From a virus, in the IMG/VR virus record IMGVR_UViG_3300045911_000062, positions 9,947 to 73,946 of that record: a DNA stretch of 64,000 nt. The stretch is one strand, 5' to 3'. The position numbers and the translations under genes were made by a program. The notes under the pieces are model-generated. The model ran no database searches and was not told the origin of the DNA. It saw only the letters and a list, made by a program, of their open reading frames with translations. Shown here piece by piece: positions 3,639 through 51,838 of the stretch (the stretch's first letter is position 1; each line of letters starts with the position of its first letter).

Positions 3639-4922
3639 TTAGTTAAGTAATATTTTACCACCATCGACACGTAATATGTAACCCCCATTATGCATCAGCA
3701 ACGCGGGATTACTAGGTTCAGACGATGGTGTAGGTGTAGGTGTAGGCGTAGGTGTAGGTGTAGGCGTAGGTGGTTCTATGGTATTTACCGTTATATTTAA
3801 CACTTCCCCTACATTCATATGTATATTATATGGTTTAGGAACTGAACATTCTTCAAAACCATCAAAACCAGCCCCAAATTTATACCCATATAATCTTATT
3901 TCACCATTCCCAGATAACGGAGCGGAGATACTTTCAGCAAATGTTAATATTGTTGTATTTGTTTCTGGATTGTATGAATGATTACTAATTTTATATTCAG
4001 TTAAATTAAACGTATCAGGATTATAGAACCATACTCGTCTTGGGGCTATTAAACCAGTTCGCAGTTGAATTGAACCGTGTATATTTTCTGAAACATGATT
4101 AAATACATTATTATTTTTTATTTTTATAATAGTATCAGTACCATTATAAGTTACTGTTTTTACTTGATATACACCGTTATTTTTATTTGGACTTTTAACT
4201 TCGATATAGCCAGATATTGAGGTGGTATCTACCTGTTCGCTTACAATGATTTCTGTTCTGTTCGATTCTGGTATGTATCTAACTAAAGTTACAGCATAAA
4301 CGCCGTCATTATAACGGCTGCCAGACACCCTAAAATGCATCTTACTTTTTATTTCTGAAACTTTATTTCCAGAAATAAAAAAGCTATTGGGCGTATTATG
4401 AACTATATCAAAAGTGAAAAAGGGGACTACTAAAAATAATTTATGTATATTGAACGTATTTAAATGGTTCCCTCGCAAAATTATTGTATCATGAGATGGA
4501 ATATTATGAATTTGAATTCTTTTATCAAATGTAAAATTGTTTATTAAATCAGGATCTCCAGATAATTCTACCGTATCTGATGTTTCATTTATTGAAATAA
4601 TAGGAGCAGAAACTAAAAGATCAGAATTGTCAAATATTAATCCATATCCACCGATACATTCAAAAAGATCGCAACACTCTACTGCATCAAAACCACATTC
4701 TTCGTCCCATATTAAACCAAATCCAACAGGTCCGCATAATGCTAAATTTTTCTTAATTATGTCGATATTGTGATTTTCTGTAATACCTACAGAAATGTAT
4801 TCATTTATCCTATATTTTTCGATGACTTCCAACAGCTTAGTATGATACGGTTTTACTTCTAAAAAATAGCGTATCAGTGCATCTATAGGTTTTGATATTC
4901 CGGGCCTTAGTTCACAAGACAT
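3639..4922 (-). CDS. Virion structural protein (baseplate wedge-like N-terminus) with Pro-Thr tract
   Basis: N-terminal YFLEVKPYHTK motif, Cys-rich segment, C-terminal EPPTPTPTPTPTPTPTPSS; late promoter at 4945-4952. Confidence 0.6.
   Translation of the reverse strand: MSCELRPGISKPIDALIRYFLEVKPYHTKLLEVIEKYRINEYISVGITENHNIDIIKKNLALCGPVGFGLIWDEECGFDAVECCDLFECIGGYGLIFDNSDLLVSAPIISINETSDTVELSGDPDLINNFTFDKRIQIHNIPSHDTIILRGNHLNTFNIHKLFLVVPFFTFDIVHNTPNSFFISGNKVSEIKSKMHFRVSGSRYNDGVYAVTLVRYIPESNRTEIIVSEQVDTTSISGYIEVKSPNKNNGVYQVKTVTYNGTDTIIKIKNNNVFNHVSENIHGSIQLRTGLIAPRRVWFYNPDTFNLTEYKISNHSYNPETNTTILTFAESISAPLSGNGEIRLYGYKFGAGFDGFEECSVPKPYNIHMNVGEVLNITVNTIEPPTPTPTPTPTPTPTPSSEPSNPALLMHNGGYILRVDGGKILLN
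3727..3773 (-). repeat. 6-bp tandem repeat (GGYGTA) encoding (PT)n
   Basis: ggtgtaggtgtaggtgtaggcgta... seen directly. Confidence 0.9.
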
Positions 4923-4952
4923 TCCAAATCCAAAGTTATAGATTTATTTATG

Positions 4953-5165
4953 CTATGCGGATTTGCTATTTAAAGAATTGTTTGGAATTGTTTTGTTATT
5001 GTGCAACATAGAATATAAAACTTCCAAAGATTGGCGAGTTGCAATAGTTACAACCCGTAACTCGTAATCAGTAATATCTTCTATTTTTGTAGAGTACAAA
5101 AAATTTAAAGTTTGTTCTAATGAGTTTACATTAAAAAATTCATGTTCAATAATTTTATCATTCAT
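4953..5165 (-). CDS. Hypothetical protein
   Basis: Likely start ATG 5165 (MNDKIIEH), overlapping the end of the upstream gene. Confidence 0.5.
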   Translation of the reverse strand: MNDKIIEHEFFNVNSLEQTLNFLYSTKIEDITDYELRVVTIATRQSLEVLYSMLHNNKTIPNNSLNSKSA

Positions 5166-5358
5166 ATTGAATATTATTTTGTTTATTTTTGTTTTCGTCA
5201 ATCTTTGATTTGCTACCATCAATTACATGTTTTACTTTTTCTAAAAACTCAGAACTAAAAGATTTATTTAGTAATATTTTATTTTTACGAGAATAAGACG
5301 CAGAATGTGATAAAAATTCAATGTACTCATTTATTGATGCCTCATCAATTTTTTTCAT
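5158..5358 (-). CDS. Hypothetical protein
   Basis: 66-aa ORF tiling with neighbours. Confidence 0.5.
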   Translation of the reverse strand: MKKIDEASINEYIEFLSHSASYSRKNKILLNKSFSSEFLEKVKHVIDGSKSKIDENKNKQNNIQYE

Positions 5359-5400
5359 ATTTTCTGTTATCCTAAACTACATGTTATAACCTATATTTAG

Positions 5401-6396
5401 TTATTTTCTAATTTTAATTTGAAATTCTACATTTGAACCGGAATATATCGAATCTGTAATCAATTTTATAGTATATGGTCTTCCATTTTTCTTAACACAT
5501 TCTGTAATATCTTTAACATCATCATCAAATTTAGGTATAGAAATACTCCAATTATGTTTTATTGCAAACTCTAACAATTTATCAGATGATCCCTTACGAT
5601 CTGGAACAATAATTTTTTGTTTTTTACATCTAACTAATAAATGTTCTTGTTCTGATGTAAGATAATTTTCCATAACAGCTACTCCATTAATATGAAAAGC
5701 ATCAAAAAAGCCCTCTGTTATGAACAAACGATTTGTTGTATTATCAAATAACCTATCAATAAAGTACATTGCTCCTAATTTTGGTTTATCAACTGACACA
5801 TATTTTCTTTGAGATTCTATCAATGCTCTAGACTGATAATAAATCATTTTTGATTCTTTAAATGCCGGTATTATTAATCTATTTTTTAGATATAATGCTT
5901 TAGCATTTTCATCGGGAGAAACAGATGATTTCCCTGTAGAAAGATAAAACGAATATTTTTCATGATCTATGCATTTTTCTTGTTTCAAGAAATTTATAGC
6001 TATATTATAAAATGGATGCGATTTAGCATTTTTAAGTTCAACAAAATAATCTGGAATATCAATATAAGAAAATTTAGGTTTTTCTTTAGGTTTATTTGAT
6101 ATTTTATCTGATAATAATAAACGAAGATATAAAATTTTATTCAAAGGAATACCAAATGCTTCTAAAATAGTCTTTACATCTTTACTCATTGCATATGGTG
6201 GTTCTAATCTTCCCTTTATGCCACAGTTGAAACAATGATAAGAAGCGGAATCATTATTCAACAACCATCCGCCTCTAGGTCCTTTAGTCCTACTTCCGTC
6301 TCCGCATACTTCACAAAAGACTTTCTGCCAACCAGCAGCAGTTGGGTTTTTTATGTTTATATGTTCTCTTATGATATCTTCTAAAGTTTCATTCAT
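5401..6396 (-). CDS. DNA primase (T4 gp61-like)
   Basis: Zn finger CEVCGD..YHCFNCG; RLIIP, YQSR; TOPRIM motif ITEGFFDA..PDR..KDI. Confidence 0.9.
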   Translation of the reverse strand: MNETLEDIIREHINIKNPTAAGWQKVFCEVCGDGSRTKGPRGGWLLNNDSASYHCFNCGIKGRLEPPYAMSKDVKTILEAFGIPLNKILYLRLLLSDKISNKPKEKPKFSYIDIPDYFVELKNAKSHPFYNIAINFLKQEKCIDHEKYSFYLSTGKSSVSPDENAKALYLKNRLIIPAFKESKMIYYQSRALIESQRKYVSVDKPKLGAMYFIDRLFDNTTNRLFITEGFFDAFHINGVAVMENYLTSEQEHLLVRCKKQKIIVPDRKGSSDKLLEFAIKHNWSISIPKFDDDVKDITECVKKNGRPYTIKLITDSIYSGSNVEFQIKIRK

Positions 6397-6402
6397 CTTA
6401 GT

Positions 6403-6432
6403 ATTATACAGTTAGATGAATAGAAGGGTCAA
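6403..6432 (-). promoter_or_regulatory. Sigma70-type promoter of primase
   Basis: Minus strand TTGACC (6432-6427), 18-nt spacer, TATAAT (6408-6403). Confidence 0.6.
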
Positions 6433-7115: not shown

Positions 7116-7141
7116 CTATTTTTAATCCCATATCGTAAAAG

Positions 7142-7149
7142 TATTTATA
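7142..7149 (-). promoter_or_regulatory. T4-type late promoter TATAAATA
   Basis: Exact TATAAATA on the minus strand just upstream of the ClpP-like start. Confidence 0.65.
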
Positions 7150-7276
7150 TCCAGTTTTAAAACTACATATTTTACTAACTGTTATAGTTAAAACGCAGAA
7201 CGCCATTTTTATTGATGCCTCTCCATATATTTTTATATGAAAAATTATGTTTATTATGTAATTTTTATTATTAATT

Positions 7277-11394: not shown

Positions 11395-12036
11395 ATGATT
11401 AGAAAAACACTTCAAGACTTTTATGATAAGGTATCAGGCAGAACAGTTTATGTCATTGCCGGTGGGTCAACAGTAAAAACACAAAATTTAAACCTTTTAA
11501 ATGGAAAATTAGTAGTATGCCTTAACAATTCATATTCTATTTATCCCGATGCATTGGCATTATATTGGGCAGATGAAACATGGGTGAATAACCATATAGA
11601 AGGTGTAAAAAATCATCCAGCTAAATTTAGATTTCATAGTAAATTCCATGTCTCTGATAAGTATTTAAATAGTGAAAAACATCTTGGAATTGGAAATTCA
11701 ACTATATTAAGACGTACTGGTGATAAAGGAATAGATCCAGATTTAAATAATGTTAGGGGCAACAATAGTGGAGCACATATATTAAATTTATTGTATAATT
11801 GTAAAGTTAGAAGAATAATATTATTAGGATATGATATGAAAATTATTGATGGTAAATCACATTGGCACGGTGGACACAGCTTATCAATAAAACCAGAAGT
11901 ATACTGCAATCTTTTTATACCTTCAATTCAATCTATGGCAGATTTTTTTAAGCGTGCAAATATAGAAGTTATAAACACGTCACCAAATACAGATTTAAAA
12001 TGCTTTCCTAGAATGAAACTTGAGGATGTCGTATGA
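11395..12036 (+). CDS. Putative glycosyltransferase, Maf/DUF115/sialyltransferase-like fold
   Basis: VIAGGST..CLNN..WAD..NNSGA..LNL..IILLGYDM..HWHG pattern. Confidence 0.6.
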   Translation: MIRKTLQDFYDKVSGRTVYVIAGGSTVKTQNLNLLNGKLVVCLNNSYSIYPDALALYWADETWVNNHIEGVKNHPAKFRFHSKFHVSDKYLNSEKHLGIGNSTILRRTGDKGIDPDLNNVRGNNSGAHILNLLYNCKVRRIILLGYDMKIIDGKSHWHGGHSLSIKPEVYCNLFIPSIQSMADFFKRANIEVINTSPNTDLKCFPRMKLEDVV

Positions 12037-12602
12037 CACAACCTATTATAGTTACAGCTTTCAGTTCAAATGAATACTATATTAAATGCGCAGAAAAATT
12101 TAAAAAAATGTTTCATAGAAATTGTAACAATTTATTAATTATGGAACAATTTAATGATTGTGGAGACTGGCATTCTAATACTAGAAAAAAACCATCAATA
12201 ATACTAAAAAATCTATGCGAACAAAAACAAACAATTATGTGGATAGATGTTGATGCAGAAATATACAATCCTATAGAACTAGATGTTCCAAATGATATTG
12301 ATATGATGGCTGTTAGGCAAGAGTGGGGACCAAGAAGAACCTGGTGTGTAGGTACTATTTTATTTAATTATACACAAAATTCTATAGATTTTTTAACGGA
12401 ATGGTGTAATGTATGTAATTCAAATAAAGGAACAGATGAAGCTAATCTTGAAATTGTTTGGCAAAAGAATTGGAAAAATAAATTAAAAACACAACTATTA
12501 CCTAGAAAATTTTTTATGGTAAACAAGTTACACGAAAAACAAAAAGATACTGTAATACTACACTATTCTTCTGGAAACGCTAGAAAAAAGGAAAAAATAT
12601 GA
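12033..12602 (+). CDS. Nucleotide-diphospho-sugar transferase (GT-A)
   Basis: KP..I..L..MWIDVDA (DxD), GTILFN..FL..W, DE, ILHY. Confidence 0.7.
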   Translation: MTQPIIVTAFSSNEYYIKCAEKFKKMFHRNCNNLLIMEQFNDCGDWHSNTRKKPSIILKNLCEQKQTIMWIDVDAEIYNPIELDVPNDIDMMAVRQEWGPRRTWCVGTILFNYTQNSIDFLTEWCNVCNSNKGTDEANLEIVWQKNWKNKLKTQLLPRKFFMVNKLHEKQKDTVILHYSSGNARKKEKI

Positions 12603-13273
12603 ACGGAGTGTCTTGGGGAGTTGTAAGTTGTCAACACGACAGTATAGTAATTGTTTGTAGTGGAAGAAGTTTAAAATCATTTGACATGAATTTATTATCT
12701 GGTATTGGACACATTATATGTGTCAATAATTCTTATATTGGTGTTCCCATTTATGATGCATGGTTTACCCTCGATCCATGGGGATTGTCTGGTGGACAGT
12801 TACCAAAAAAAGGAAATCCAAAATTATACGCAGCAGTTCCACAAGACTTTGGGACGCCACACGCAAAAATTCAAAGTCACAGGATAAATGCACCAAAAAA
12901 TATAACGTATTTACATAGGTTAATATCCCATAATAATCCAACTGTATCAAGTGAAACTGCTTATAGATTAGGTTTGAGTGAAGACCCCGGTTGTATAAAT
13001 ACTGGCAACTCTGGTTTTGGTGCTCTAAATCTTGCATACCACATGAAACCAAAAAAAATTTTGATATTAGGCATGGATGGAGATATAGGATATTATTATT
13101 CCGGATCAGAAAAGAATAGATCATTGAAATTTTTACCACTAATGATGGAATCTACGGTTGATCAGTTAAAAAAAGCAAATATAACAGTAATAAATGGCAG
13201 TTTAAACAGTAGTATAACTTGTTTTCAAAAATATACTCCAGAAGAATCAGTAAAAATATTCAAGGATATTTAA
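12599..13273 (+). CDS. Putative glycosyltransferase, Maf/DUF115-like; paralog of 11395..12036
   Basis: IVCSGRSL..CVNN..FTLDP..GNSGFGALNLAY..ILILGMD. Confidence 0.6.
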   Translation: MNGVSWGVVSCQHDSIVIVCSGRSLKSFDMNLLSGIGHIICVNNSYIGVPIYDAWFTLDPWGLSGGQLPKKGNPKLYAAVPQDFGTPHAKIQSHRINAPKNITYLHRLISHNNPTVSSETAYRLGLSEDPGCINTGNSGFGALNLAYHMKPKKILILGMDGDIGYYYSGSEKNRSLKFLPLMMESTVDQLKKANITVINGSLNSSITCFQKYTPEESVKIFKDI

Positions 13274-13276
13274 AAA

Positions 13277-14614
13277 ATGCTTGACACTATAATTAAATCT
13301 ATAAATGACACTAAAGACATAAATGGCAATATAGTTTTTTTCAGAGTGTATAAAGGTGATATAATTATACGTTTAGCAAAATTGGATATTACAGAAAAGA
13401 ATTTTTTGATCATACATAATTCTACTGGCTTAGAGCAACCTACCATTTTTGATTTTGAAAAAGATAATAAGACTTGCTTATACAACAAGGGAAGGTTTTC
13501 ATTTTCTAGGAAAAATCTTATAAATCGTCTAAATTCTAACATAAAAAACTATAAAAATAAATTCACAATAAATGATTTTCGTGATATAAAAACTGCAATA
13601 AAAAATTTAAAAAATATATCGCCATCTATTTGTGTTATAGATCTAATCCAATATGAGCCTACAAAAGAATGTTTAGAGTTTTGTTTTAAAATACTACCAA
13701 TAAATGGTAATATTATTATAACAAATTACGTTGAAACGAATAATAATCTAAGTTCAAAAGCCGTTAATGAATTTCTTTATAAAAATAATGACAATATATG
13801 TAAAACAATCAATAGTATAGAAAAAACAATAACATTAACAAAAAAAGAAGAATCTACACAAGACATAATAGAAATATTTCAATACAAAACGGAATCATAT
13901 AATAATGAATCAGACTTAATACAAACATTTCCATACAAAATGGAAACATATAAAAATGAACCAGACTTAATAATATCATGTGTGTTGCGTACAGGAGGAC
14001 CAGTTTATAATTACAACTATGTTAATGCTCTAGCTAATTCTATTAAAAAAAATGTAAAAATACCACACGAATTTGTATGTCTTACCGACGATCATACCGG
14101 ATTTAATTCTAATGTGGACTCAATTATAAAATTAAAACACGATTTTAAAAAATGGTGGTGTAAAATAGAATTATTTAGACCTGATATATTTAAAAACAAA
14201 AGAGTATTTTTCTTAGATTTGGACACAGTTATTTTAGAAAATATTGATAATATAGTTAGTAAGAAATTTAATTTTTGTGGACTAAGAGATTTTTATAAAA
14301 ATGATACGCTTGGAAGCGGTTTAATGTCATGGACATCAGGCGGTTATCACCATATTTATGAAAAATTTTTAAGAAATTCACAAGCAATTATGAATTACAC
14401 GCCAGAAGGCGATCAACAATGGATCAATCAAAATGTTGATGGCATAACATATTTTCAAGATGTTTTCGGATCTGAAATTGTTTCTTATAAAAAACATTGT
14501 ATTAAAAATAAAATATTTAATATGCCTAAAAATGCAAAAATAATATGCTTTCACGGAGTACCAAAGCCACATGAAATTAACTATCCACAAATAAGGGATC
14601 ATTGGCTGCCTTGA
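13277..14614 (+). CDS. Degenerate TylF-like methyltransferase domain fused to GT-A (GT8-like) glycosyltransferase
   Basis: C-terminal YVNAL..FVCLTD..WWCKIELF..FFLDLDTVI..GDQQWI..FHGVPKPH; N-terminal YEPTKECLE..KAVNEF. Confidence 0.72.
   Translation: MLDTIIKSINDTKDINGNIVFFRVYKGDIIIRLAKLDITEKNFLIIHNSTGLEQPTIFDFEKDNKTCLYNKGRFSFSRKNLINRLNSNIKNYKNKFTINDFRDIKTAIKNLKNISPSICVIDLIQYEPTKECLEFCFKILPINGNIIITNYVETNNNLSSKAVNEFLYKNNDNICKTINSIEKTITLTKKEESTQDIIEIFQYKTESYNNESDLIQTFPYKMETYKNEPDLIISCVLRTGGPVYNYNYVNALANSIKKNVKIPHEFVCLTDDHTGFNSNVDSIIKLKHDFKKWWCKIELFRPDIFKNKRVFFLDLDTVILENIDNIVSKKFNFCGLRDFYKNDTLGSGLMSWTSGGYHHIYEKFLRNSQAIMNYTPEGDQQWINQNVDGITYFQDVFGSEIVSYKKHCIKNKIFNMPKNAKIICFHGVPKPHEINYPQIRDHWLP
13874..13975 (+). 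repeat. Imperfect 51-bp tandem duplication (17 aa) in the interdomain linker
   Basis: IFQYKTESYNNESDLIQ / TFPYKMETYKNEPDLII. Confidence 0.85.
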
Positions 14615-14642: not shown

Positions 14643-15689
14643 ATGTCAACTATAAAATATAAATGTAATACATGTAAAAGAGAAGTTGAATTGTTAGAAA
14701 ATCAAAACGGGTTAACCGTAATTGGTAGATGCGTGTTGACTAATGGTTGCTTTGGAAAACTGCAACCTATTGCGAGAAACCCATACAATATAAGAGAAAC
14801 GTATGATTATTATGACAATGACCTTTCTGAATTATATGAATTCAATTCTAGAAACAAATTTTTTAACCATCATCAGATTAATAAAAATACAATATGGAGA
14901 ATTAAACACAATTTAAATAATCATCCATTTGTAGTAGTATTTGTTAATACTGGTAACGGAATAAAAAAACTAGATAAATCAAACTATTCTATTAATTATA
15001 TAGATTCTAATAACTTAATTGTTAATTTAGATAATGCATCTGGCGTAGCTCATTGTATAGCAAGAACTTCACAACATGACATTATAAAATATTCAGAACC
15101 AACAGAACAAATGACCCAAGTTACAGTTGGTGGAACATTCACATTTGCTATTCCAAAATTACTTACAAAAATTGATACTCCCACACCAACACCAACTCCA
15201 TCGTTGCCATTAGATTTACAATTTATTGGCGATATAGAATTGGAAATAGGGATAACAAAGCCTAATGAAGAGGAAGTTATTTGTTTTGAAAAAATACCAA
15301 CAACCCAGATAGCTTCTCCATGGGTTGGCATAAATGAAATACTCATACGAAACCGTAGAAATTATTACGTCAAAATGAAAAACATTTTACAATTTACTAC
15401 TTTCGATAATGCAAATTTAACTTTTTCTGATATACCTGATGGAACAAAAATTCGATTCATCAGAATCAATTATGGTACTGGAATACGTCAAAGCATACCG
15501 TCACGAGGAGCATTTGTTCTATTAAGTACCTATCCACACAAAATTCATGATAAAACGTTAGACAAAATTCTTGATTTAGGTGAAATAGTAGATACACAAT
15601 ATTGGTATATGACATATAATGGGGGAGAAGTTTATATTAATACTAATGCTATCGAATCCACATATCCGCATATAAGGAAGGTTTCATGA
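14643..15689 (+). CDS. Putative virion protein (Cys-containing N-terminus, WxIxHNL domain, TPTPTPTPS tract)
   Basis: CNTC..C..C, WRIKHNLNNHPFV, DTPTPTPTPS; late motif AATAAATA at 14614-14621. Confidence 0.55.
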   Translation: MSTIKYKCNTCKREVELLENQNGLTVIGRCVLTNGCFGKLQPIARNPYNIRETYDYYDNDLSELYEFNSRNKFFNHHQINKNTIWRIKHNLNNHPFVVVFVNTGNGIKKLDKSNYSINYIDSNNLIVNLDNASGVAHCIARTSQHDIIKYSEPTEQMTQVTVGGTFTFAIPKLLTKIDTPTPTPTPSLPLDLQFIGDIELEIGITKPNEEEVICFEKIPTTQIASPWVGINEILIRNRRNYYVKMKNILQFTTFDNANLTFSDIPDGTKIRFIRINYGTGIRQSIPSRGAFVLLSTYPHKIHDKTLDKILDLGEIVDTQYWYMTYNGGEVYINTNAIESTYPHIRKVS

Positions 15690-16645
15690 TAATAAAAACA
15701 AACTTTTCTAACGGATTGATATATTCTTGGGATGGAATAAATAATCCACTAAAATATTCTAATGGATATGTTTCTATTAAAAATACAAAAAAATTAATAT
15801 CTTGTACTATGTCACATGGTATTAGAAATTATTATATAGAGTTAAAAGATAAAAATAATGCTTGGCACATCAATTCATCAGAAAAAACTTGGTTATTAGT
15901 ACAATTAAATAATTTTACAGGTGAATTACAATATATTACCACAACCATAAACCCAGAAAACAAATTTGGAACAACTCTACCTAATCAAATTAATATAGGA
16001 GAAATGTTTTTTAATTTAACAAATAATAGAATGTTTCAATGGAATGGTTACAATTGGGTTAATATAATTCAAATAATAGTTGGAACGTGTCAAAATGGTG
16101 TTGTTAATATTTCACATACCGGAACTCAAGTAGGATCAACAAAACCTTCATTTTGTAGCACAATATTACAGTCTAGAAATGGTATTCCACTGAGAATACA
16201 AGATGGTGAATATTATTCATTTATGACTCAAATGGATTATAAAGATAATGTTAACTCGTGGAAAACTTCTACAAACATACTTTTAAGTAATTCCATATAT
16301 TACGGAGTCGCCTCTGAAAATATTCCACATCTTTCTTTGTTAAGTATTGATAATAACGGTAATATAGTTAAAGCAAATAACATTAATAAAGTAGCATTTG
16401 CTATATCTATGGGGAATTTTTCAATCGGTCAGGTAGTAAAATATATAACTCGTGGTGAAATTGTTGACAATTCTTGGATATTTGGCCCTGATGAAATCAA
16501 CAAAAATTTATTTTGTGATGAAAACGGTCGGCTTACTACACATCTTGCTAAATCTAATATCATTCAAAAAATTGGTACAATAATAGGAAGAGATATTATA
16601 GATTTTTACCCGCAAGAGCCAATTTATTTAAATCCTAATTTTTAA
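15686..16645 (+). CDS. Putative virion structural protein
   Basis: GEMFFNLTNNRMFQWNG motif and a C-terminal domain resembling those of 3020..3556 and 49982..51838. Confidence 0.5.
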   Translation: MIIKTNFSNGLIYSWDGINNPLKYSNGYVSIKNTKKLISCTMSHGIRNYYIELKDKNNAWHINSSEKTWLLVQLNNFTGELQYITTTINPENKFGTTLPNQINIGEMFFNLTNNRMFQWNGYNWVNIIQIIVGTCQNGVVNISHTGTQVGSTKPSFCSTILQSRNGIPLRIQDGEYYSFMTQMDYKDNVNSWKTSTNILLSNSIYYGVASENIPHLSLLSIDNNGNIVKANNINKVAFAISMGNFSIGQVVKYITRGEIVDNSWIFGPDEINKNLFCDENGRLTTHLAKSNIIQKIGTIIGRDIIDFYPQEPIYLNPNF

Positions 16646-23085: not shown

Positions 23086-23970
23086 TTATTGAGAAAATTC
23101 TAAAGAGAAATCTTTCCAATAATCTCTAGCTCTAATTGGAATTTTTTGATCATTTATTTTTAAATAAAATTGTGGATCTTCATCGTCTTCATAAAAACAA
23201 TCCGGCAATTGTTTATTCCACGGCATATTATTTTCTAATGTTTCTAGACAAAGAGTTGGTATATAATTATCTATAGTTATATTTTGCGTTTTAATCATTT
23301 TTATTGGTTCAATGTCATTTACACCTACACTAGCAAAGTAGTCTCTAAACTTTATTCCATCTCCCCATAACTTATCAGAAAAATGTAACCATAAACATGG
23401 AACTTGATATGCATGTGATGTTATTATTCCATGTAAACTTGAAGATATTATTTTTTCACAACTAAGAATATCATCTATAAATCTTTCCATTTTCTTAGCT
23501 GTTGGTGTTGTAGTATTTAAAATTATAGTATCGCGAAAATGCTCTTCATGTTGTTTAACAAAACTTACCATATCATGATATTCTATTTGATGTGGTATTA
23601 TGCCAAGCTTATATTTCTTTTTTATATTTTTATTATTATACATAGATGGTAATAATAATGCTGGATCTCCATATACCACTTCTCCAACATCAATTCCAGA
23701 TTCTTCCAAAACTTTTTTCGTCAACGGACCCCTAACAACATTATAAACTAATCCGTGTCTAAGTTTTTGTGTTCTAGATATAACACCATTTCCAAAAACA
23801 TGAGTATTTTTCGACAAATGATGAGTTAATGTACTACCTACTAATGTTATTTTGTTTTCTATCTCATGATGGCAATAATGAAATGGTATGTTTTTTTTAA
23901 ATAAAATGTACTGATTTAGGGCATCACCGAAATTATTGGAAGGTATGAAATTAATTTTAAGTCTTTTCAT
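23086..23970 (-). CDS. Polysaccharide pyruvyl transferase (ExoV-like)
   Basis: NFGDALN, VRGPLT, GDPALL, LGIIPH, SSSLHG, KFRDY. Confidence 0.88.
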   Translation of the reverse strand: MKRLKINFIPSNNFGDALNQYILFKKNIPFHYCHHEIENKITLVGSTLTHHLSKNTHVFGNGVISRTQKLRHGLVYNVVRGPLTKKVLEESGIDVGEVVYGDPALLLPSMYNNKNIKKKYKLGIIPHQIEYHDMVSFVKQHEEHFRDTIILNTTTPTAKKMERFIDDILSCEKIISSSLHGIITSHAYQVPCLWLHFSDKLWGDGIKFRDYFASVGVNDIEPIKMIKTQNITIDNYIPTLCLETLENNMPWNKQLPDCFYEDDEDPQFYLKINDQKIPIRARDYWKDFSLEFSQ

Positions 23971-24877
23971 TTTTTATAAACTTTTCAAAATAATCACTAA
24001 ATGCTACTTTATTCGGGTTATGTAAGTGACCCCAATCTCTATGATAGAACGAATCAAACATTATAGTTTTAAATAAATTTTTATTTTCGTGTGATATGGT
24101 TGAATATATTGATTCTTCAGAAAATAATTCTTTATCATTTATTATATCTACAATTTTTGATACACATAAACAGCAAAAAATATCCATAAATTCTTTTCTT
24201 CCGCCGAAGAACCCGCCTATCATAGAATCTGTACGCATATTCGTGTCTATATGATAGAACCGTTTTGGCAGTGGTCTATTGTTGGGTATTGTATGACATA
24301 TGGATATGATTTTATTTTCTATGTCATTTAAAATATTTTGTATTAAATTTTTATTAAAAATTCCAACAGACTTATTAGGATTATTTTTAACATCATGAAA
24401 ATATTCATGTGGAAATAATAGACTACTAGACAAACCAGCATCAATCCAAAACAAATAATCAACAGTAATATTAACTGAATTCATTACGTGACGTATCATT
24501 TCAGTTTTACCCCACATGATATGACAATTTCTATCTATCCAAAATCTACTTTTTAAATATGGATCAGATTTTTCAATTTTAATTTGAAAAATACTGTTAG
24601 AAAACCAAAAATCAGTTAAATCTTTTTTTATTACAAATATATTATTATACTCTTTGAATTCATTACATATCTGATGAAATGTATCACTAGAAGTAAAACA
24701 ATATATTGGATAACCTATATTTGATATGCTTTTTAAAGATTCTCTATAATATTTTTCTCTATCTGGTCTTCCGCCAAATGGCGTTCCATGATAACCATCA
24801 TAAATACAAGTTACAAATATGACATTATTATAGTTCTTTTTATTTTTTTTCACAGCATAACCATGCACATTTTTCAA
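23957..24877 (-). CDS. HtrL/YibB-like putative glycosyltransferase
   Basis: FVTCIY, K..M, FWIDAGL, IGGFFGG, SEESI; similar to the middle domain of 25445..27790. Confidence 0.65.
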   Translation of the reverse strand: MKNVHGYAVKKNKKNYNNVIFVTCIYDGYHGTPFGGRPDREKYYRESLKSISNIGYPIYCFTSSDTFHQICNEFKEYNNIFVIKKDLTDFWFSNSIFQIKIEKSDPYLKSRFWIDRNCHIMWGKTEMIRHVMNSVNITVDYLFWIDAGLSSSLLFPHEYFHDVKNNPNKSVGIFNKNLIQNILNDIENKIISICHTIPNNRPLPKRFYHIDTNMRTDSMIGGFFGGRKEFMDIFCCLCVSKIVDIINDKELFSEESIYSTISHENKNLFKTIMFDSFYHRDWGHLHNPNKVAFSDYFEKFIKNEKT

Positions 24878-25403
24878 AGTCTATATTTGAGTATTTTTTT
24901 AAATTTTTTAATGATTCTAATACATCGGAATCTATTATTTCACACCAATCCCAATATGTATCTTTAATATTGTTTAAAAAATGTTCCTCATTTATAGCAT
25001 AATCGTGTGCCATAATAAAATCGCCAGAGTTTATTATCCTAGAAAAATAATTAAATTCCTTTTTTTTATCGCCACCGTCACATAAAATCAAAGTTTTTCC
25101 ACTTGATATTTTATCATTGATAATATCTAATGCATCTTTAGAGAATACGTCTAATATTATTCTTCCTTTTAAATTTTCGTCTCCTACCCTATCAACAATA
25201 TCAAAAGATAAAAAATTATAATTATATTCTATAGATTTTTCATATAAAAACAAACAAAATCCACCATATGCAGTTCCAATTTCTATAACATTTTTAAAAT
25301 TTTGTTCTTTTAAAAAAACATCAAAAGATGCAAATGTTATATTATTTTGCATAGCTTTAAAGTTTTTATATACAAAAAATCCAGTTTTATTAAAGTAATC
25401 CAT
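24840..25403 (-). CDS. Class I SAM-dependent O-methyltransferase (CmcI/rhamnosyl O-methyltransferase-like)
   Basis: VIEIGTAYGG, SFDI, LILCDGG, IMAHDY; TATAAATA at 25424-25431. Confidence 0.7.
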   Translation of the reverse strand: MDYFNKTGFFVYKNFKAMQNNITFASFDVFLKEQNFKNVIEIGTAYGGFCLFLYEKSIEYNYNFLSFDIVDRVGDENLKGRIILDVFSKDALDIINDKISSGKTLILCDGGDKKKEFNYFSRIINSGDFIMAHDYAINEEHFLNNIKDTYWDWCEIIDSDVLESLKNLKKYSNIDFEKCAWLCCEKK

Positions 25404-30577: not shown

Positions 30578-31024
30578 TTATGATGAGACTGAACTTTGTT
30601 TAGATTTTGTTGTAGTAGCTTCTACTTTAGGAGCTTCTACTTTAGGAGCTTCTTGCCCAGAAACAGCCATAGATAAAGACATTTGATTATGTGATACACC
30701 AAATCCATGTCCTGGGAGAGATGTTTTCCCATTAGTATGTAATACTCGTACTAATTGATGATATAAAACCAATGCGTTCTGCCCATTTGGTAAAGTTACT
30801 TGACTTAATAAATCCCATAGCTCATAACGATGAGCATCGCGACGTTTAAGTATTTTTACAAAACGCTCCTTATCAATTTTATCTAAATGCAATGTCTTGA
30901 TAAAATAAATATCACCATTTGATGGATCTTCACGCATAACTAACACTTCTTGCATCACTCCGTCTATCAATATTCTACGTAAGTGATTGTATACTGGTGC
31001 TGTTTTTTGTGTAACTCTTGACAT
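30578..31024 (-). CDS. Hypothetical phage protein
   Basis: AAGGAG RBS; late motif at 31053-31060; short EAPKV repeat at the C-terminus. Confidence 0.65.
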   Translation of the reverse strand: MSRVTQKTAPVYNHLRRILIDGVMQEVLVMREDPSNGDIYFIKTLHLDKIDKERFVKILKRRDAHRYELWDLLSQVTLPNGQNALVLYHQLVRVLHTNGKTSLPGHGFGVSHNQMSLSMAVSGQEAPKVEAPKVEATTTKSKQSSVSS

Positions 31025-46057: not shown

Positions 46058-48301
46058 TTATCGGTTTGATAGTGAAAAACGAGTTCTACCAGTTCCAATA
46101 TTAGCTCCAGTACGGACTACCCTTACCTTTACATAAATGAATTCTACAGCCTTCACTGGTTTGATAGCGATGTCTACATGAAGCTCATTGTTATCTATAG
46201 TTTCTGGCGTATTATTTGTTTCATCAACTAAAACTGCAAAGTCATACAAACCTCTACGGTCAACCAAAGTGCTCAAAAAACCATCGCATGCTGATTTAAC
46301 TAAATCCCATGTGATACTATCGTTAGGCTCGAAAAGGAATGAAAATAATCCCTTCCTTAATTGTCTCTTGATAAACTTACATAGTCTTGAAACATTTATT
46401 CTATCAAGAGCAGAAGGAGTACCCTGACCAGTCTTTTGACCCATTACCAAAATTCCTCGTCCTGGTATATAAGCTAAAGGATTAATATTCTTAGGTGACT
46501 CATATAATTCATCTCTTGTTCCAGTATCACAATATTCTTGAACAAAAGTGGTTGGACCGCCTAAAGTTCCAGATACATATCCAATATCTTGCAAGAACCC
46601 GCACTGACCGCGGTTAACACCTGCAGGTGGCCACCAAACATCCCTCTGTTGGTCATTATAAGCAAAAACTCGCAATGCCGCAGATGCTGCCGTAGTCATA
46701 ATATTTCTACCGTCTATATTAGATGATAAACCATGTGGAAAATATGCTGCACCATGCCAATTTTCATTTCTATTCTGTCCTGACGTTGCCCATGCTGCAA
46801 TAGAGCCAGGACCTGTTGCTGGTTTGTCAAAAGGAGTTTCATCTAAAATAAACACCTCTTCTAATTGATCCTGCATTAAACGATATAATGCTGAAGCAAC
46901 TTTATTTCCGTGAAAACCTGGAGCCAAAACTATATTGTATTCTAACCATTCTGAACGTGATCCATTATTAGGGTTATTAATAGCTGCAACTATTGCTCTT
47001 TCAATTTCATTATATCGTTCTGCATTATTAGAACCCAAAGATGTAAAAAATACGAATTCTTTTGTATTATCAAAATCTCCAGCGGCTGCTAATAATAATC
47101 CTTCTGCTTCATCAGCAGTAAATTCTGTAGGTTCTACAGATCCTGAATTCCATTGATCGATTAAACCATAAAGGCCAACGTAACCGCCTACTATTTGATT
47201 ATCACCACCTATAATTGTATCATATGAATCATCATATATGTTTAATGTTGATGGGCCTTTTCCGTTGATAGGTGCTGCAATCCTATCGAATAAGCTTAAA
47301 GATGCGAACAATGGTAATGAACCAGAAATTCCGTCAGATATTACTACGCTAGAAGTTGGGCCTTCCCATGTACTGGTTATTCTTATAGCGCCTTGAATCA
47401 ATTCACACGTAGCATAATTATTCAATTGAGAATTTATAGCATCTACTAAATCTCCAAATGTAATAATATCACTACCGCTAAAAGATAGATTAATTGTTGT
47501 TGATTCAGCATTATTGTCATTATTATAATCACCAACTATGTATATACTTGCACGATATTCTTCGTCTTCGTCTAGACCTGCAAAATCTCCCAAAGTAATA
47601 AATCCGTTATAAGTTTCTGTTAATACATCTTGATATGCTGGTCTAGCTGTTAAATTACTTAACAAAAATTCATCACGAAATGATGATGTTCTACCATCAT
47701 TTACTGGATTTTCATCAGGGAGATCTTTTGCCTCTCTACTAAAGTTGTACATATTAAATACATCTTTCAATGCTTCATTTAATAGTACCTTTAAAGTATC
47801 GCCATCAACTGATGTTTTATAAAATTGGTCTGCTGGATATAAATTATTAACAGAATTATATTCTTGTAACCAATTAGACACTAATTCATTTAAATAATCC
47901 GCTGCAATCTGAATTTTACGAGTCCATAATGCTTTGATATCTTGTATATTATCATTCAAATTTACATTTGCACGAATTACATACGCTCTATTACCTATTT
48001 CTAAGTATTTATTTAATGCATCCAAACCATATTCATTACGAGCATCGCCATGATGATTTGCATCTGAAGCTGAACGTAAATATTTTGGAATACCATATAA
48101 CTGCAATGATTGGCGTAAGCTAGTAACAGTTCTCAGAACATTATGTTCGTATGTTCCAACAGCAGGCGAAACCCCATCTGGTTGTAGTTTTTCATCTTCT
48201 GTTGCAATAAAAATAAGTGGAAAGCTCGCTGCACGACCTGGAATATAAAAAGACTCGTCTACGATGGTTACGTCTACGCCTGGGCTAATTAATTGTGCCA
48301 T
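46058..48301 (-). CDS. Contractile tail sheath protein (gp18-like)
   Basis: LISPGVDVTIVDES, WWPPAGVNRG, INPL, GQKT, SALDRINVSRL, FEPND, IKPVKAVEFI. Confidence 0.95.
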   Translation of the reverse strand: MAQLISPGVDVTIVDESFYIPGRAASFPLIFIATEDEKLQPDGVSPAVGTYEHNVLRTVTSLRQSLQLYGIPKYLRSASDANHHGDARNEYGLDALNKYLEIGNRAYVIRANVNLNDNIQDIKALWTRKIQIAADYLNELVSNWLQEYNSVNNLYPADQFYKTSVDGDTLKVLLNEALKDVFNMYNFSREAKDLPDENPVNDGRTSSFRDEFLLSNLTARPAYQDVLTETYNGFITLGDFAGLDEDEEYRASIYIVGDYNNDNNAESTTINLSFSGSDIITFGDLVDAINSQLNNYATCELIQGAIRITSTWEGPTSSVVISDGISGSLPLFASLSLFDRIAAPINGKGPSTLNIYDDSYDTIIGGDNQIVGGYVGLYGLIDQWNSGSVEPTEFTADEAEGLLLAAAGDFDNTKEFVFFTSLGSNNAERYNEIERAIVAAINNPNNGSRSEWLEYNIVLAPGFHGNKVASALYRLMQDQLEEVFILDETPFDKPATGPGSIAAWATSGQNRNENWHGAAYFPHGLSSNIDGRNIMTTAASAALRVFAYNDQQRDVWWPPAGVNRGQCGFLQDIGYVSGTLGGPTTFVQEYCDTGTRDELYESPKNINPLAYIPGRGILVMGQKTGQGTPSALDRINVSRLCKFIKRQLRKGLFSFLFEPNDSITWDLVKSACDGFLSTLVDRRGLYDFAVLVDETNNTPETIDNNELHVDIAIKPVKAVEFIYVKVRVVRTGANIGTGRTRFSLSNR

Positions 48302-48368
48302 CTGTTATCTCCTTAAAATAAAATAAGATGTTACAGATATTTATTATGAATGCAAAAATATTATTAAA

Positions 48369-49157
48369 TTAATTTGGTGGAATGTCCATATCATCAATAT
48401 CATATAAAACTTTATATGGAGGATCTGACCTATTTACTTCTCTGACTTTTTCATTGACATCTTCTGTATTTTTAATAGCTTCTAATCTTAACTTAACAGC
48501 CTTAATAAAATTAGTTTTAATATTTACGGGTGGAACTAAATAAAACCACACCAAAAAATTTAGATTAGTTACTATTATTCTTTTATCTGACAATTTTGGA
48601 TAATTTGTATTAAACTCAATAGATTTTAATTGAACTTGAGTTATTCTCACAAAATCGTGTATGTCATCGCTAGTTTGAATTTGTAAAGTTGGATCAAATA
48701 TCATTAAAATTTGTTCTAATATTTGAAAATGTTCATGTTCATTACTAGTGTATATGCTAAGTTCCATCATTCCATCATAAGGAACGGGAACCTGCTTATA
48801 AATTACTTTTAAATCGTCTGGTAGTGCTCCACCTCTTGGCAGATTAGTAGTACGCTCTTGAGCACCTATTCCCTTTAATCTTTCTGTTGCTAAATCAATA
48901 CCAGCCATATTAACTGATATAACTGGTAAACTTAACGGCTTATTTTGCGTATTCTCTGATATAATTGCATCTACTATTCTACTAGAATTTCCATATCTAA
49001 CTGGAACTTCTACAAAATCATTAGATGAATCAACATTTGAATTTTTTCCGACTTTTACTTTTAACCCGGAAAAAATTGCCATAAATTGAATTATATAACG
49101 CCTTAACTGTGCGTCATAAAAATAAGTATCCAAGTCTTTTTTAAAGTCATTATTCAT
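48369..49157 (-). CDS. Tail sheath stabiliser/terminator (gp15-like)
   Basis: YFYDAQLRRYIIQF..IFS, VPVRYG, LPVIS, PVPYD, QILEQIL..FDP. Confidence 0.85.
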   Translation of the reverse strand: MNNDFKKDLDTYFYDAQLRRYIIQFMAIFSGLKVKVGKNSNVDSSNDFVEVPVRYGNSSRIVDAIISENTQNKPLSLPVISVNMAGIDLATERLKGIGAQERTTNLPRGGALPDDLKVIYKQVPVPYDGMMELSIYTSNEHEHFQILEQILMIFDPTLQIQTSDDIHDFVRITQVQLKSIEFNTNYPKLSDKRIIVTNLNFLVWFYLVPPVNIKTNFIKAVKLRLEAIKNTEDVNEKVREVNRSDPPYKVLYDIDDMDIPPN

Positions 49158-49170
49158 TATTTTAAAATTA

Positions 49171-49896
49171 TTATTTAGTTATTGTATTATTTATAATTAT
49201 ACCAAGCAAAATAGTCTCATTCCATACATGAGTAGAAATTGTTGCATAAAATTCTATATTAGATCTAATTATATGTTCAATATAATTAGCATAATCACCA
49301 TCGTCTACTGAATCAGAATTGCTCAAGGATTTATTGACATATTGATTATCAGTTAAATCAAACCAAGAGATAGCATTCAATGCTTCCGGCAAACTACCAC
49401 TTTCTGATAGTATAACACATAGTGTAATTCATGGTGTAATTGATGGTGTAATAGATGGTGTAATTGATGGTGTAATAGATGGTGTAATAGATGGTGTAAT
49501 AGATGGTGTAATAGATGGTGTAATAGATGGTGTAATAGATGGTGTAATAGATGGTGTAATAGATGGTGTAATAGATGGTGTAATAGATGGTGTAATAGAT
49601 GGAGTATTACTGACTATTACAAATTGTTTTGAATTTTCAATAAAATATATGTTAAGAAGTCCAATAACATTATTTGAAAAATTAAAATTTATATATGTAT
49701 CATTATATGTTATATTGTTAGGATATATTTGTTGGCCATTTATATCTAAAATATTAAAATAAAAATTTGTTCCGTAATTTCTTACTGATACAGAATTACC
49801 ATTAAACTTTATAGATCGCCATTTATCATTATCTGGTGCCTGACCAGAATGTAATATTATATTTCCAGTTAGTATATCTAAAAAACAATTTGACAT
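49171..49896 (-). CDS. Virion-type protein with (SITP)14 tract, interrupted by one in-frame TGA at 49429-49431
   Basis: ORFs 49429..49896 and 49171..49392 are in the same frame; the junction reads ..SITP*ITLCVILSESGSLPEALN..; late motif at 49920-49927. Confidence 0.65.
49432..49599 (-). repeat. 12-bp tandem repeat x14 (TCW ATT ACA CCA = SITP)
   Basis: gatggtgtaatw units counted directly. Confidence 0.95.
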
Positions 49897-49981
49897 TCAA
49901 TTTAATTTTTTTATTTACTTATTTATGCTATTGAAAATTCTTTTTAATTCATGCTTATTACTATAAATATTATTTTTATAA

Positions 49982-51838
49982 TCAAAATGATGATGGTGTT
50001 GGCGTTACATCTGGTGTAATTGTTGGGGTTGGTGTCGGTGTCAATGTAATATTTGGATCAATATCAATAGAGTTCAATTCACCAAATGCAATTGTTTGAA
50101 TATCTTCATTAGATGGATCTATAAAATCGACTAAAGAAAAAGAAGAAATAGTATTACCATCAAATTCAAATGCATAACCGTTTGAATTTAATGGGAAATA
50201 AATTCTATGACGACCTGAACGCCCGGAAACATGCATAGAAGATGCATATGATCCCATATCATATAGTGGATTAAAAAGTTCATTTCCTAAATGATCAGTC
50301 ATAATAAATCCACTTGAATAAATTTGAAGGTTATAATCTGATGTGTCAACTAAATATGTCACATAGCCTGTAATGGTATCCATTTTAACATCTAATAAAT
50401 TTGAAATTGTATAAGAGTTATTTAATGATATGGTTCCAAAACTATCTACAGAAAAATAATTTCCAATATGATCTACACCTGTGTATACATATGCAAAAAC
50501 AGTGTTATTATAATATTGAATATATTCTATTTCATCATCAAAAGTATATGTATCAACTAAAGTAAATGTATTTGTTATATTATCAAACGTGTATGTATGA
50601 AAACTATAATTTTCACATATTACATAATAATCTCCAACTTTACCTATATTTCTACAATGCATATTTGTATTAGAAATTAAATTTAAATGATTATTTGTTA
50701 TAGTAAATATTAACAAACCTGGAGGTGTTAAATTCTCTGGCGGTATTCCTTCCGTAAAACCCTGTCCCGCTGGCACGAATAGATATTCAGTTCCATCAAT
50801 ATAAGTAAATAAAACATCCCTAGTAAAAAGAAAACAAGAACCATTCCATGGATATGGTTCTACTATTGCATCATAATATGAAGTTATAAACAATGAAGAA
50901 CCATATCTAACCAACATTAAAATTGAATCATACCTGACCAAAACTGCATGATTATTATGAATGGCGGATAGTATTGTATAAGTTTCAGTGTTAAAAACTA
51001 AATCTGGAAAATCATAATTATATGCAATTATATTTAAATCTGACATATCATACGACACATATGAAGATGCATCGACGTTTGATTGTAACATAAATTCTTC
51101 TTCAACAACAAGTATTGGCGTATTTGATGGTGTAATAGATGGTGTAATAGATGGTGTAATAGATGGTGTAATAGATGGTGTAATAGATGGTGTAATAGAT
51201 GGTGTAATTGATGGTGTAATTGATGGTGTAATTGATGGTGTAATTGATGGTGTAATTGATGGTGTAATTGATGGTGTAATTGATGGTGTAATTGATGGTG
51301 TAATTGATGGTGTAATTGATGGTGTAATTGATGGTGTAATAGATGGTGTAATAGATGGTGTAATTGATGGTGTAATTGATGGTGTAATTGATGGTGTAAT
51401 TGATGGTGTAATAGATGGTGCTACATATTCTATATTAATGTAATCTTTTATGTCTACAAAAATTAAATTGGCATCCATAACAAAACCAACTTTTTGCATT
51501 ATCCCTTTATTTGGTACAACAGTAGTTAATTCTCCGCTTTTACCTAAAAAAAGTGGAGTCATTGGGGGTGCAGAAAATATATTTTCACCAAAATCTATAA
51601 CGCCAAATCTAATATATTTAATAAGTTCTTGTGGAGAAGAATTTTGTATTGCTACTCCATGACATTCTAAAAAATTTGCTGTTGATGCCAATTTTACTAA
51701 ATTATCACCATACGATACATTTACACAATAAAATTTTGGTATATATTCTATTGCAGACCCTTCGAGATGTTGACATTCAAATTTAGTGCTACGTAGATAA
51801 TTATCTATAATTGATATTTTTTTATCTGGGTCAATCAT
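49982..51838 (-). CDS. Putative virion surface protein: small N-domain, (SITP)24 stalk, beta-rich domain, TP tail
   Basis: Likely ATG 51838 behind late motif 51860-51867; ends TLTPTPTPTITPDVTPTPSSF. Confidence 0.65.
   Translation of the reverse strand: MIDPDKKISIIDNYLRSTKFECQHLEGSAIEYIPKFYCVNVSYGDNLVKLASTANFLECHGVAIQNSSPQELIKYIRFGVIDFGENIFSAPPMTPLFLGKSGELTTVVPNKGIMQKVGFVMDANLIFVDIKDYINIEYVAPSITPSITPSITPSITPSITPSITPSITPSITPSITPSITPSITPSITPSITPSITPSITPSITPSITPSITPSITPSITPSITPSITPSITPSITPSNTPILVVEEEFMLQSNVDASSYVSYDMSDLNIIAYNYDFPDLVFNTETYTILSAIHNNHAVLVRYDSILMLVRYGSSLFITSYYDAIVEPYPWNGSCFLFTRDVLFTYIDGTEYLFVPAGQGFTEGIPPENLTPPGLLIFTITNNHLNLISNTNMHCRNIGKVGDYYVICENYSFHTYTFDNITNTFTLVDTYTFDDEIEYIQYYNNTVFAYVYTGVDHIGNYFSVDSFGTISLNNSYTISNLLDVKMDTITGYVTYLVDTSDYNLQIYSSGFIMTDHLGNELFNPLYDMGSYASSMHVSGRSGRHRIYFPLNSNGYAFEFDGNTISSFSLVDFIDPSNEDIQTIAFGELNSIDIDPNITLTPTPTPTITPDVTPTPSSF
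51128..51415 (-). repeat. 12-bp tandem repeat x24 (SITP), same unit as 49432..49599
   Basis: 288 nt of gatggtgtaatw units, with blocks of TCT and TCA variants. Confidence 0.95.

Follow-up and report, generated by a model that had tools for sequence, protein, structure and literature searches.

A tandem GT60 glycosyltransferase and Thr/Pro-rich tracts in a jumbo phage: a candidate system for O-glycosylation of fibre stalks

This study addressed a 64,000-nucleotide stretch of viral DNA (the window), bases 9947-73946 of the 73,946-base viral contig IMGVR_UViG_3300045911_000062, which encodes a tandem enzyme of glycosyltransferase (GT) family 60, further candidate glycan enzymes and four proteins with repetitive Thr/Pro-rich (TP) tracts. 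The phage probably coats its appendages with sugar, because the enzyme and the stalks were found to travel together across very different phages. A preliminary description of the window had read these genes as a mucin-type O-glycosylation system in which GT60 acts on the tracts. This interpretation was supported in part; methylated or pyruvylated glycans and a role in shielding, spacing or adhesion are suggestions of that description. The proposed link between GT60 and the tracts gained support from their co-occurrence and adjacency, a conserved cassette, the position of the tracts within their proteins, the solubility of the proteins, late promoter motifs and the glycoproteins of the related phage XacN1. 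The term "mucin-type" holds as a functional analogy with the GT27 system and not as family membership, the enzyme being a GT60.

As judged from its genes, the contig is a fragment of a T4-type, XacN1-like jumbo myophage. The closest cultured relatives are the jumbo myophages XacN1 and Xoo-sp13 of Xanthomonas and CM1/RAS14 of Stenotrophomonas, whose polymerases are 41-44% identical to that of the contig (43% for XacN1), with gene order kept. A close relative was also identified in IMG/VR, the 307-kb genome G001 (sheath 86% and GT60 82% identical).

GT60 and Thr/Pro tracts across phages

The tandem GT60 enzyme (896 aa, 27830..30520, minus strand) is proposed, from its sequence, to be an initiating polypeptide N-acetylhexosamine (HexNAc) transferase. 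It matched PF11397 with an E value of 1.6e-117 and 393 bits (cut-off 21) in three stretches (Pfam). Residues 4-317 span profile positions 1-350 of 352, and the second half (residues 477-892) aligned with the GT60 of XacN1 as well (tblastn). Each half contains LQLDSHHRF (residues 111-119 and 566-574), and the DSH within it (D115-S-H117 and D570-S-H572) is presumably the catalytic motif (DxH/DxD) that binds metal and nucleotide sugar, as is familiar from GT27 and GT60. The double GT60-type transferase of the preliminary description is thereby confirmed. PF11397 was the only family that Pfam found on the protein, with no match to GT27 or to a ricin-type lectin domain, and a PDB sequence search with GT60 gave no match. 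At least 182 relatives were found in IMG/VR; the XacN1 orthologue, ORF334, has one GT60 domain only. The characterised GT60 members cited in one earlier paper act on polypeptides, as shown by the modification of hydroxyproline in Skp1 and by the polypeptide alpha-N-acetylglucosamine (GlcNAc) transferase of T. cruzi (PMC6939170).

No prolyl hydroxylase (PF13640) was detected in XacN1, Xoo-sp13, RAS14, G001 or G002, a further IMG/VR genome, and for this reason a linkage through Thr/Ser is likelier than one through hydroxyproline. A 212-aa open reading frame (ORF; 38377-39015, minus strand) gave a sub-threshold match to 2-oxoglutarate-Fe(II) oxygenases (PF13640, 14 bits), the sole such match on its own contig; if real, it could matter for hydroxyproline-linked glycosylation.

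Whole genomes were searched for the coding pattern (TPxx)3TP, with the reversed pattern as a control, which gave no match in any set. The cultured GT60-positive phages XacN1, Xoo-sp13 and RAS14 contain 19, 12 and 23 matches, respectively, and the pattern was present in 18 of the 22 GT60-positive IMG/VR genomes of at least 129 kb, including 10 of the 12 that are at least 90% complete. It was absent from all 12 GT60-negative T4-like or jumbo phages (RsoM2USA, SCTP-2 and ten further phages; ~3.8 Mb). Overall, tracts were found in 21/25 GT60-positive and 0/12 GT60-negative genomes (Fisher p = 1e-6, uncorrected for relatedness), a co-occurrence that the preliminary description had anticipated.

The GT60-positive genomes belong to several lineages that diverged deeply. 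A sheath or polymerase close to that of the window was found in G001 alone; the other GT60-positive groups have either no detected sheath homologue or one that is ~30-41% identical where its C-terminal part aligns. Among GT60 loci, the polymerase neighbourhood is common to the window and to the locus of G001 (L002) only, and no orthologue of the tract protein P0002, described below, was found in the 15 other GT60-positive genomes searched.

In a reverse test, 36 contigs of at least 30 kb were picked solely by a six-unit tract, and 8 of them carried PF11397; after a strand check, the count was 7 of ~30. Such a check is needed because the "TP" match of one genome, G027, was read on the strand opposite to that encoding a (GV)n linker of a fibre/Hint protein, and G027 was dropped as an independent case. 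This 108-kb genome has no detectable homologue of the window polymerase, and its distant GT60 lies 700 bp from the "TP" match. At this locus (L275, C1:18000-36000), a GT60-like gene with a DAH motif immediately follows the gene of a 735-aa fibre-like protein that has (GV)n linkers and whose C-terminus is Hint-like (ORFs 7304-8323 and 8333-10540, minus strand). RsoM2USA-like contigs were considered as a sister-group control and proved unusable, comprising 17 small contigs only, and a scan of genome contigs returned only 4 contigs from metagenome-assembled genomes, which are probably phage.

The surroundings of GT60 were compared in 80 IMG/VR loci, with flanks within 10 kb of the gene. A homologue of the 781-aa HtrL/GT2 protein of the window (residues ~220-781) is encoded on the same strand as GT60 and at most 9 kb from it in 66/80 loci, and in 32 loci it lies immediately beside GT60 (gap under 100 nt, or overlapping). 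Homologues of the 187-aa methyltransferase-like gene and of the 306-aa gene were present in 27/80 and 22/80 loci, respectively. XacN1 possesses the core of this cassette, consisting of GT60 (ORF334), the 306-aa protein (ORF332) and HtrL/GT2 (ORF330, 39% identical). A TP-tract ORF was found within the fetched flank in 11 loci, and in five loci (L044, L048, L054, L080 and L081) it ends directly before GT60 on the same strand. When loci L002-L014 were compared with the window, the tandem GT60 proved to be 72-74% identical between this phage and the G002-G005 group, whereas the sheaths are just 30-37% identical, which suggests that the cassette moves between phage lineages.

Several GT60-adjacent tract proteins (L015, L029, L048, L054 and L081) share a ~250-aa N-terminal domain, in which the motifs GFCLFF, GGxPGxGLGY and IGFDxTGxFG recall L-type lectins; a lectin-like domain was not confirmed by Pfam in these proteins.

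Tract proteins, glycan enzymes and genomic context

All four tracts of the preliminary description, (SITP)24, (SITP)14, (PT)8 and TPTPTPTPS, were recovered. P0001 (622 aa, 49982..51850, minus strand) comprises a ~145-aa anchor module, (SITP)24, a ~350-aa beta-rich head and a TP tail, and its gene sits between that of a 3100-aa baseplate-associated giant protein and those of gp15 and the sheath. A ~130-aa module of P0001 is common to two more contig proteins and to G001 proteins that run on into TVTP repeats; the G001 orthologue of P0001 has the same module and TVTP repeats. The C-terminal part of a 319-aa protein (15686..16645, plus strand; phrog_4368) is a paralogue of the anchor module, and its G001 orthologue (L268) continues into a TVTP tract. 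The anchor module gave nothing in a word-index protein search or by tblastn against cultured phages.

The second SITP protein (155 aa, 49171..49896, minus strand) ends in (SITP)14. Tandem repeat analysis (TRF) of the two SITP genes gave 25.4 and 15.4 copies of a 12-nt unit with 97% match. The reading frame of the second gene is interrupted at 49429-49431 by a TGA, which replaces a TCA Ser codon in the last SITP unit, and 86 in-frame codons follow. The same TGA was present in the Logan contig of the best-holding run, possibly the source sample, at a depth of ~38, where no variant of it was seen. A nonsense allele, a site of readthrough and a switch mediated by the repeats are all conceivable. 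TGA is the stop of 15/53 window genes, so that its recoding was rejected and the standard genetic code applies.

P0002 (427 aa, 3639..4922, minus strand) consists of a conserved ~395-aa beta-rich domain, (PT)8 and a short C-terminal motif. Its family comprises 72 representatives at E<=1e-30, ranging from 377 to 2340 aa, with the ~395-aa N-terminal domain in common. The TP tract follows directly after this domain in ~35 of the 42 evaluable members, and the distal domains beyond the tract are unrelated to one another (propeller-like, LamG-like or Cys-rich, and RCC1-like in Xoo-sp13). Orthologues are present in XacN1, Xoo-sp13, RAS14 and G001. At the C-terminus of P0002 (3639-3700), and in L261, L082 and L084, the motif LLxxNGxYxLxxxGxxILL flanks TP tracts; its G001 version is MLMEDDSPMLMEDDS.

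P0003 is a fibre-like protein (348 aa, 14643..15689, plus strand) with an internal TPTPTPTPS. A short internal tract is retained by its orthologues, and in those of cultured phages long tracts as well as distal domains are added. In Xoo-sp13, the orthologue (Xoosp13_332) bears the annotation "GTA host specificity protein"; the sheath stabiliser is two genes away, and the order is ribonucleotide reductase, small genes, orthologue of the 445-aa GT described below, P0003 orthologue, one gene, sheath stabiliser, sheath. All the relatives examined have the 445-aa GT orthologue immediately before the P0003 orthologue (XacN1, where it is beside the first copy, Xoo-sp13, RAS14 and G001), and in Xoo-sp13 the pair is part of the tail module.

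By analogy, fibres for receptor binding or decoration are usually built in this succession of anchor, stalk and variable head. No Ser/Thr/Pro-rich tails or tracts were found in the tube paralogues, sheath, gp15, wedge or giant protein. In the genome G005 (L276, C1:25500-42500), the ORF at 5180-13999 (minus strand) encodes a 2940-aa protein with 72% Pro+Thr+Ser, whose 580 [ST]xTP units are preceded by an N-terminal domain of ~70 aa and followed by a C-terminal one rich in Cys; genes beside it also carry TP tracts between small Cys-rich domains.

With regard to the other glycan enzymes, the GT60 operon begins with a gene for a 148-aa protein that has an XacN1 orthologue (30578..31024, minus strand, as are the genes that follow). 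Beyond GT60, it encodes a 781-aa HtrL_YibB and GT2-like protein (25445..27790; Pfam, TIGR02192), which is a putative elongating enzyme. The HtrL_YibB match of this protein (46.6 bits) is above the cut-off, and those to GT2 (22.1 bits) and, N-terminally, to Methyltransf_31 (16 bits) are below it. There follow a putative S-adenosylmethionine-dependent O-methyltransferase of 187 aa (24840..25403; RMNT_CmcI, E 0.005, a weak match below the cut-off), the 306-aa cassette protein (23957..24877; homologue of XacN1 ORF332), which had no Pfam or NCBIfam match, and a polysaccharide pyruvyltransferase (23086..23970; PF04230, E 7.5e-13, above the cut-off). A second pyruvyltransferase (2..736, minus strand; PS_pyruv_trans above the cut-off) has its gene start beyond the window edge.

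Four overlapping late genes on the plus strand (213, 189, 224 and 445 aa; 11395..14614) are directly upstream of the TP-tract fibre gene. The 189-aa protein (12033..12602) matched Nucleotid_trans with 23.4 bits, and the 445-aa protein (13277..14614) matched a PHROG glycosyltransferase (E 8e-41) and has a DLDTV motif. Just outside the window, the contig encodes a GT-D-like protein (contig 9179-9934; PF22882, E 6e-11), a DegT aminotransferase and a 642-aa protein with a weak GT1-like match. Matches to Maf/MptE-like proteins were not significant (E 0.02-0.04). The enzyme inventory of the preliminary description was confirmed. Both pyruvyltransferases were verified, and its count of about seven GT or GT-like domains is roughly right, with about half of them resting on sub-threshold matches; the methyltransferases do have matches, albeit weak ones below the cut-off.

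The motif NATAAATA was found 14-44 nt upstream of 21/53 gene starts, where its overall density would predict ~1. All four tract genes and the first genes of both enzyme operons are among them, so that the late motif said to be shared by enzyme and acceptor genes is indeed common to both. In the GT60 operon, CATAAATA lies at -36 of the first gene, and TATAAATA lies at -28 of the 187-aa gene, the first gene after it; TATAAATA also precedes the operon 11395..14614 at -36, and CATAAATA precedes the P0002 gene at -30. From its sequence and position, a TATAAATA-like -10 element just upstream of late genes marks a T4-type late transcription unit. No terminator-like site was found on the minus strand from 31024 to 23086, the extent of the GT60 operon, and no membrane segment was found in any glycan enzyme or tract protein.

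The remainder of the contig is in keeping with its T4-type assignment. It has a GC content of 29%, with 25-35% in the window, and a CheckV completeness of 21%, and the window DNA is present in hot-spring and microbial-mat metagenomes. Its genes include those for a T4-type family-B DNA polymerase, RNase H, ribonucleotide reductase and thymidylate synthase, together with structural genes for a tail sheath, a gp15-type sheath stabiliser, two tail-tube paralogues and a baseplate wedge subunit. The sheath and stabiliser genes (46058..49157, minus strand; PF17482, PF16724) form the context of the SITP genes. The giant protein and the wedge subunit (51863..63950, minus strand; phrog_10646, E 9e-261) have no TP tract and occupy a region syntenic with XacN1 ORF324/325. 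The 3100-aa protein itself (51863-61165, minus strand) has no Pfam match, and its XacN1 orthologue, ORF325, has 3313 aa.

The tail-tube paralogues (phrog_4542) lie at 41352-42266 (304 aa) and 42900-43520 (206 aa), both on the minus strand. A TnsA-like endonuclease N-terminal domain protein (147 aa, 40901-41344, minus strand; PF08722, E 9.5e-15) adjoins one of them, and an HNH/homing endonuclease (529 aa, 44430-46019, minus strand; phrog_3339, E 1.8e-81) is encoded directly downstream of the sheath gene. Upstream of the window and beside the glycan island, contig bases 2868-6125 (L256) encode a metallopeptidase/VWA protein (DUF2201), a MoxR-like AAA ATPase and a macro-domain protein. In G001, the direct terminal repeats (bases 3-205 and 306597-306757) are TVTP-coding tandem repeats; their call, the genome's mark of completeness, may be an assembly artefact caused by these repeats.

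Proposed mechanism and alternative targets

On balance, we lean towards a cytoplasmic, stepwise O-glycosylation of the fibre stalks by the phage's own enzymes, for which we infer acceptor, sugar, order of steps, virion location and benefit as follows. Late in infection, the soluble glycan enzymes would be made in the host cytoplasm alongside the tail and fibre proteins. The double GT60 would transfer HexNAc onto Thr/Ser hydroxyls of the extended [ST]-x-T-P tracts. In several fibre-like proteins, these tracts connect the conserved domain that would anchor the protein in the virion with a distal domain that varies. The sugar, by analogy with the family, would be GlcNAc from host UDP-GlcNAc. The HtrL/GT2 protein and the GT-D-like, GT77-like and 445-aa GT transferases could then extend the chain, the DegT aminotransferase could supply an amino sugar, and the pyruvyltransferases and probably methyltransferases could cap it. 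The virion would thereby acquire mucin-like stalks that are stiff and resist proteases.

Several observations weigh against this reading. The pattern was missing from four GT60-positive genomes, two of them at least 95% complete, and the co-occurrence statistics ignore relatedness and compare with cultured phages from other habitats. Conversely, GT60 is missing from at least five near-complete phage genomes with coding TP tracts, so that the tract alone is no predictor of the enzyme. The placement of the tract proteins in the virion is deduced from synteny alone, with sheath, gp15, tube and wedge as neighbours. The AlphaFold model of the P0001 anchor module, built from 5 sequences, is poor (predicted local distance difference test, pLDDT, 48). 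The model of the conserved P0002 domain (pLDDT 70; 85-95 at residues 100-340) had no Foldseek match, and its VIA-align matches over a ~80-residue beta-barrel (Z 9-10; tail-tube insertion, tailspike N-domains and EF-Tu domain 2) are too generic for P0002 to be placed in the virion by fold. All methyltransferase assignments are below Pfam cut-offs. Finally, the glycosylation of this phage is itself something that we infer, and the XacN1 glycoproteins were never matched to genes.

The most substantial alternative, which we consider unlikely, is that the tracts are plain unmodified linkers and that the GTs act on the host envelope (lipopolysaccharide (LPS) core, capsule, S-layer or pili) or on another phage product. 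Pro/Thr linkers are common as unmodified spacers, and both the complete phage genomes with TP tracts but no GT60 and the two near-complete GT60-positive genomes devoid of a tract fit this explanation. In E. coli, HtrL is associated with LPS-core loci and HtrL_YibB takes its name from an LPS-locus gene, and a host-envelope target is therefore conceivable; a pyruvyltransferase together with DegT is likewise typical of polysaccharide pathways. Nevertheless, all the proteins are soluble, and no membrane-anchored enzyme, flippase, polymerase or lipid-carrier/initiating phosphoglycosyl transferase was found. The promoter motifs are late and not early, and XacN1 virions contain glycoproteins. Unmodified linkers would also leave the association of GT60 with tracts in several lineages, and their adjacency, unexplained.

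It is still less probable, though conceivable, that virion proteins are glycosylated at other sites, such as capsid or decoration proteins encoded outside the window, and that the tracts merely co-occur with GT60, both being traits of fibre-rich jumbo phages. In mycobacteriophages, glycans are carried on C-terminal tails of capsid and tail-tube subunits (PMC12619734), the capsid gene of this phage is not on the contig, and the XacN1 glycoprotein bands were not matched to proteins. Against this, the tube, sheath, gp15, wedge and giant proteins have no Ser/Thr-rich tails, and none of the 12 GT60-negative jumbo or T4-like phages has tracts, although several exceed 340 kb. The characterised GT60 members cited in PMC6939170 modify polypeptide hydroxyls, and tract genes abut GT60 in five loci.

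Glycosylation of phage DNA bases, as performed by T-even glucosyltransferases, would suit a T4-type phage with thymidylate synthase, ribonucleotide reductase and nucleotide-metabolism genes close by, and phage GTs are frequently DNA-modifying, but it is very improbable, given that the promoter motifs are late and not early, that no base-hypermodification genes were found beside the cassette and that GT60, GT-D, HtrL and pyruvyltransferase are, to our knowledge, not families known for DNA modification.

Returning to O-glycosylation of the stalks, we can only tentatively suggest its wider form, in which a horizontally mobile core of GT60 and HtrL/GT2 with variable capping enzymes gives many unrelated large phages true mucin-like glycoproteins with a strain-specific fibre glycocalyx. 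It is similarly possible, if somewhat short of probable, that this represents a counterpart of eukaryotic mucin-type O-glycosylation in prokaryotic viruses and the bacterial cytoplasm, of which the 2940-aa protein with 580 [ST]xTP units would be the extreme case.

Known systems and significance

XacN1 resembles the phage studied here in lineage, synteny, GT60, HtrL/GT2, the 306-aa protein, numerous TP-tract proteins and the orthologues of P0002 and P0003. ORF236, ORF237, ORF370 and ORF372 are among the XacN1 proteins with TP tracts. It differs in having a single GT60 domain and a carbamoyltransferase, in contrast to the tandem GT60, pyruvyltransferases and other enzymes of this phage. Its virions show at least two Schiff-positive bands, for which ORF328 and ORF334 were proposed as makers (Yoshikawa et al. 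2018, PMC5852040). These authors recognised two GTs only and made no connection between GT60 and Thr/Pro tracts (PMC5852040).

The protist GT60 enzymes (Gnt1 of Dictyostelium and Toxoplasma, and the mucin-initiating T. cruzi enzyme) are similar in their full-length family match and DxH motif, and cytoplasmic Gnt1 is soluble as well. The differences are the viral and prokaryotic setting, the tandem duplication and a prolyl hydroxylase partner that was not found in the relatives, and the activity here is a prediction from sequence. The trypanosome glycoprotein gp72 has PTVTPTP-type tracts as predicted glycosylation sites (PMC3630849). Trypanosome proteins thus share with this phage Thr/Pro-rich tracts as proposed acceptors.

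Virion glycosylation was reportedly described in 2023 by Freeman et al. for the mycobacteriophages Che8, Corndog and Myrna. There, the structural proteins of the phage are modified in the cytoplasm by glycosyl- and methyltransferases that the phage itself encodes, as is proposed here, the methyltransferases being sub-threshold matches in our case. The mycobacteriophage acceptors are capsid and tail-tube C-terminal tails, whereas the candidate acceptors here are internal repeat stalks of fibre-like proteins and the tube has no such tails; the initiating enzyme family and the host phylum differ as well.

Among giant viruses, chloroviruses have capsid glycans and Mimivirus has fibril polysaccharides with pyruvylated GlcNAc and methylated sugars. 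The likeness lies in virus-encoded, host-independent glycan synthesis with aminotransferase, methyltransferase and pyruvyltransferase steps that coats surface fibres. In contrast, those viruses are eukaryotic, use other GT families and bring nucleotide-sugar pathways of their own, while a complete nucleoside diphosphate-sugar pathway was not found on the contig of this GT60-bearing tailed phage.

The serine-rich-repeat adhesins of Gram-positive bacteria are O-glycosylated stepwise in the cytoplasm, starting from GlcNAc, by GtfA/B and the GT-D enzyme dGT1. They likewise have long Ser/Thr repeat stalks, and a GT-D-like (DUF1792-like) gene is present on the contig. Unlike that system, this one has no clear GtfA/GtfB pair and no accessory Sec system, its repeats are [ST]xTP and not SASx, and its putative initiator is a GT60 and not a GT4. 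With regard to a GtfA/GtfB-type GT4 pair, the 642-aa protein gave a weak 15-bit match to Glyco_trans_1_4.

Glycosylation of phage virions is already known, and the new element is the link between GT60 and the tracts; a full-text literature search for GT60 with phage gave nothing relevant. Virion glycosylation by phage enzymes has been documented only in a few mycobacteriophages and hinted at for XacN1. Given that XacN1 can be cultivated, the question is directly testable. If the link is true, mucin-like O-glycosylated appendages would be common in large environmental phages (at least 182 GT60 loci in IMG/VR), with consequences for how hosts are recognised, how well proteases are resisted, how phages adhere to mats and biofilms, and how antibodies recognise therapeutic jumbo phages. 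These loci would also yield, for bacterial glyco-engineering, polypeptide HexNAc-transferases that are soluble and cytoplasmic and use a simple repeat as acceptor, and they would provide a new evolutionary setting for the otherwise protist-centred GT60 family.

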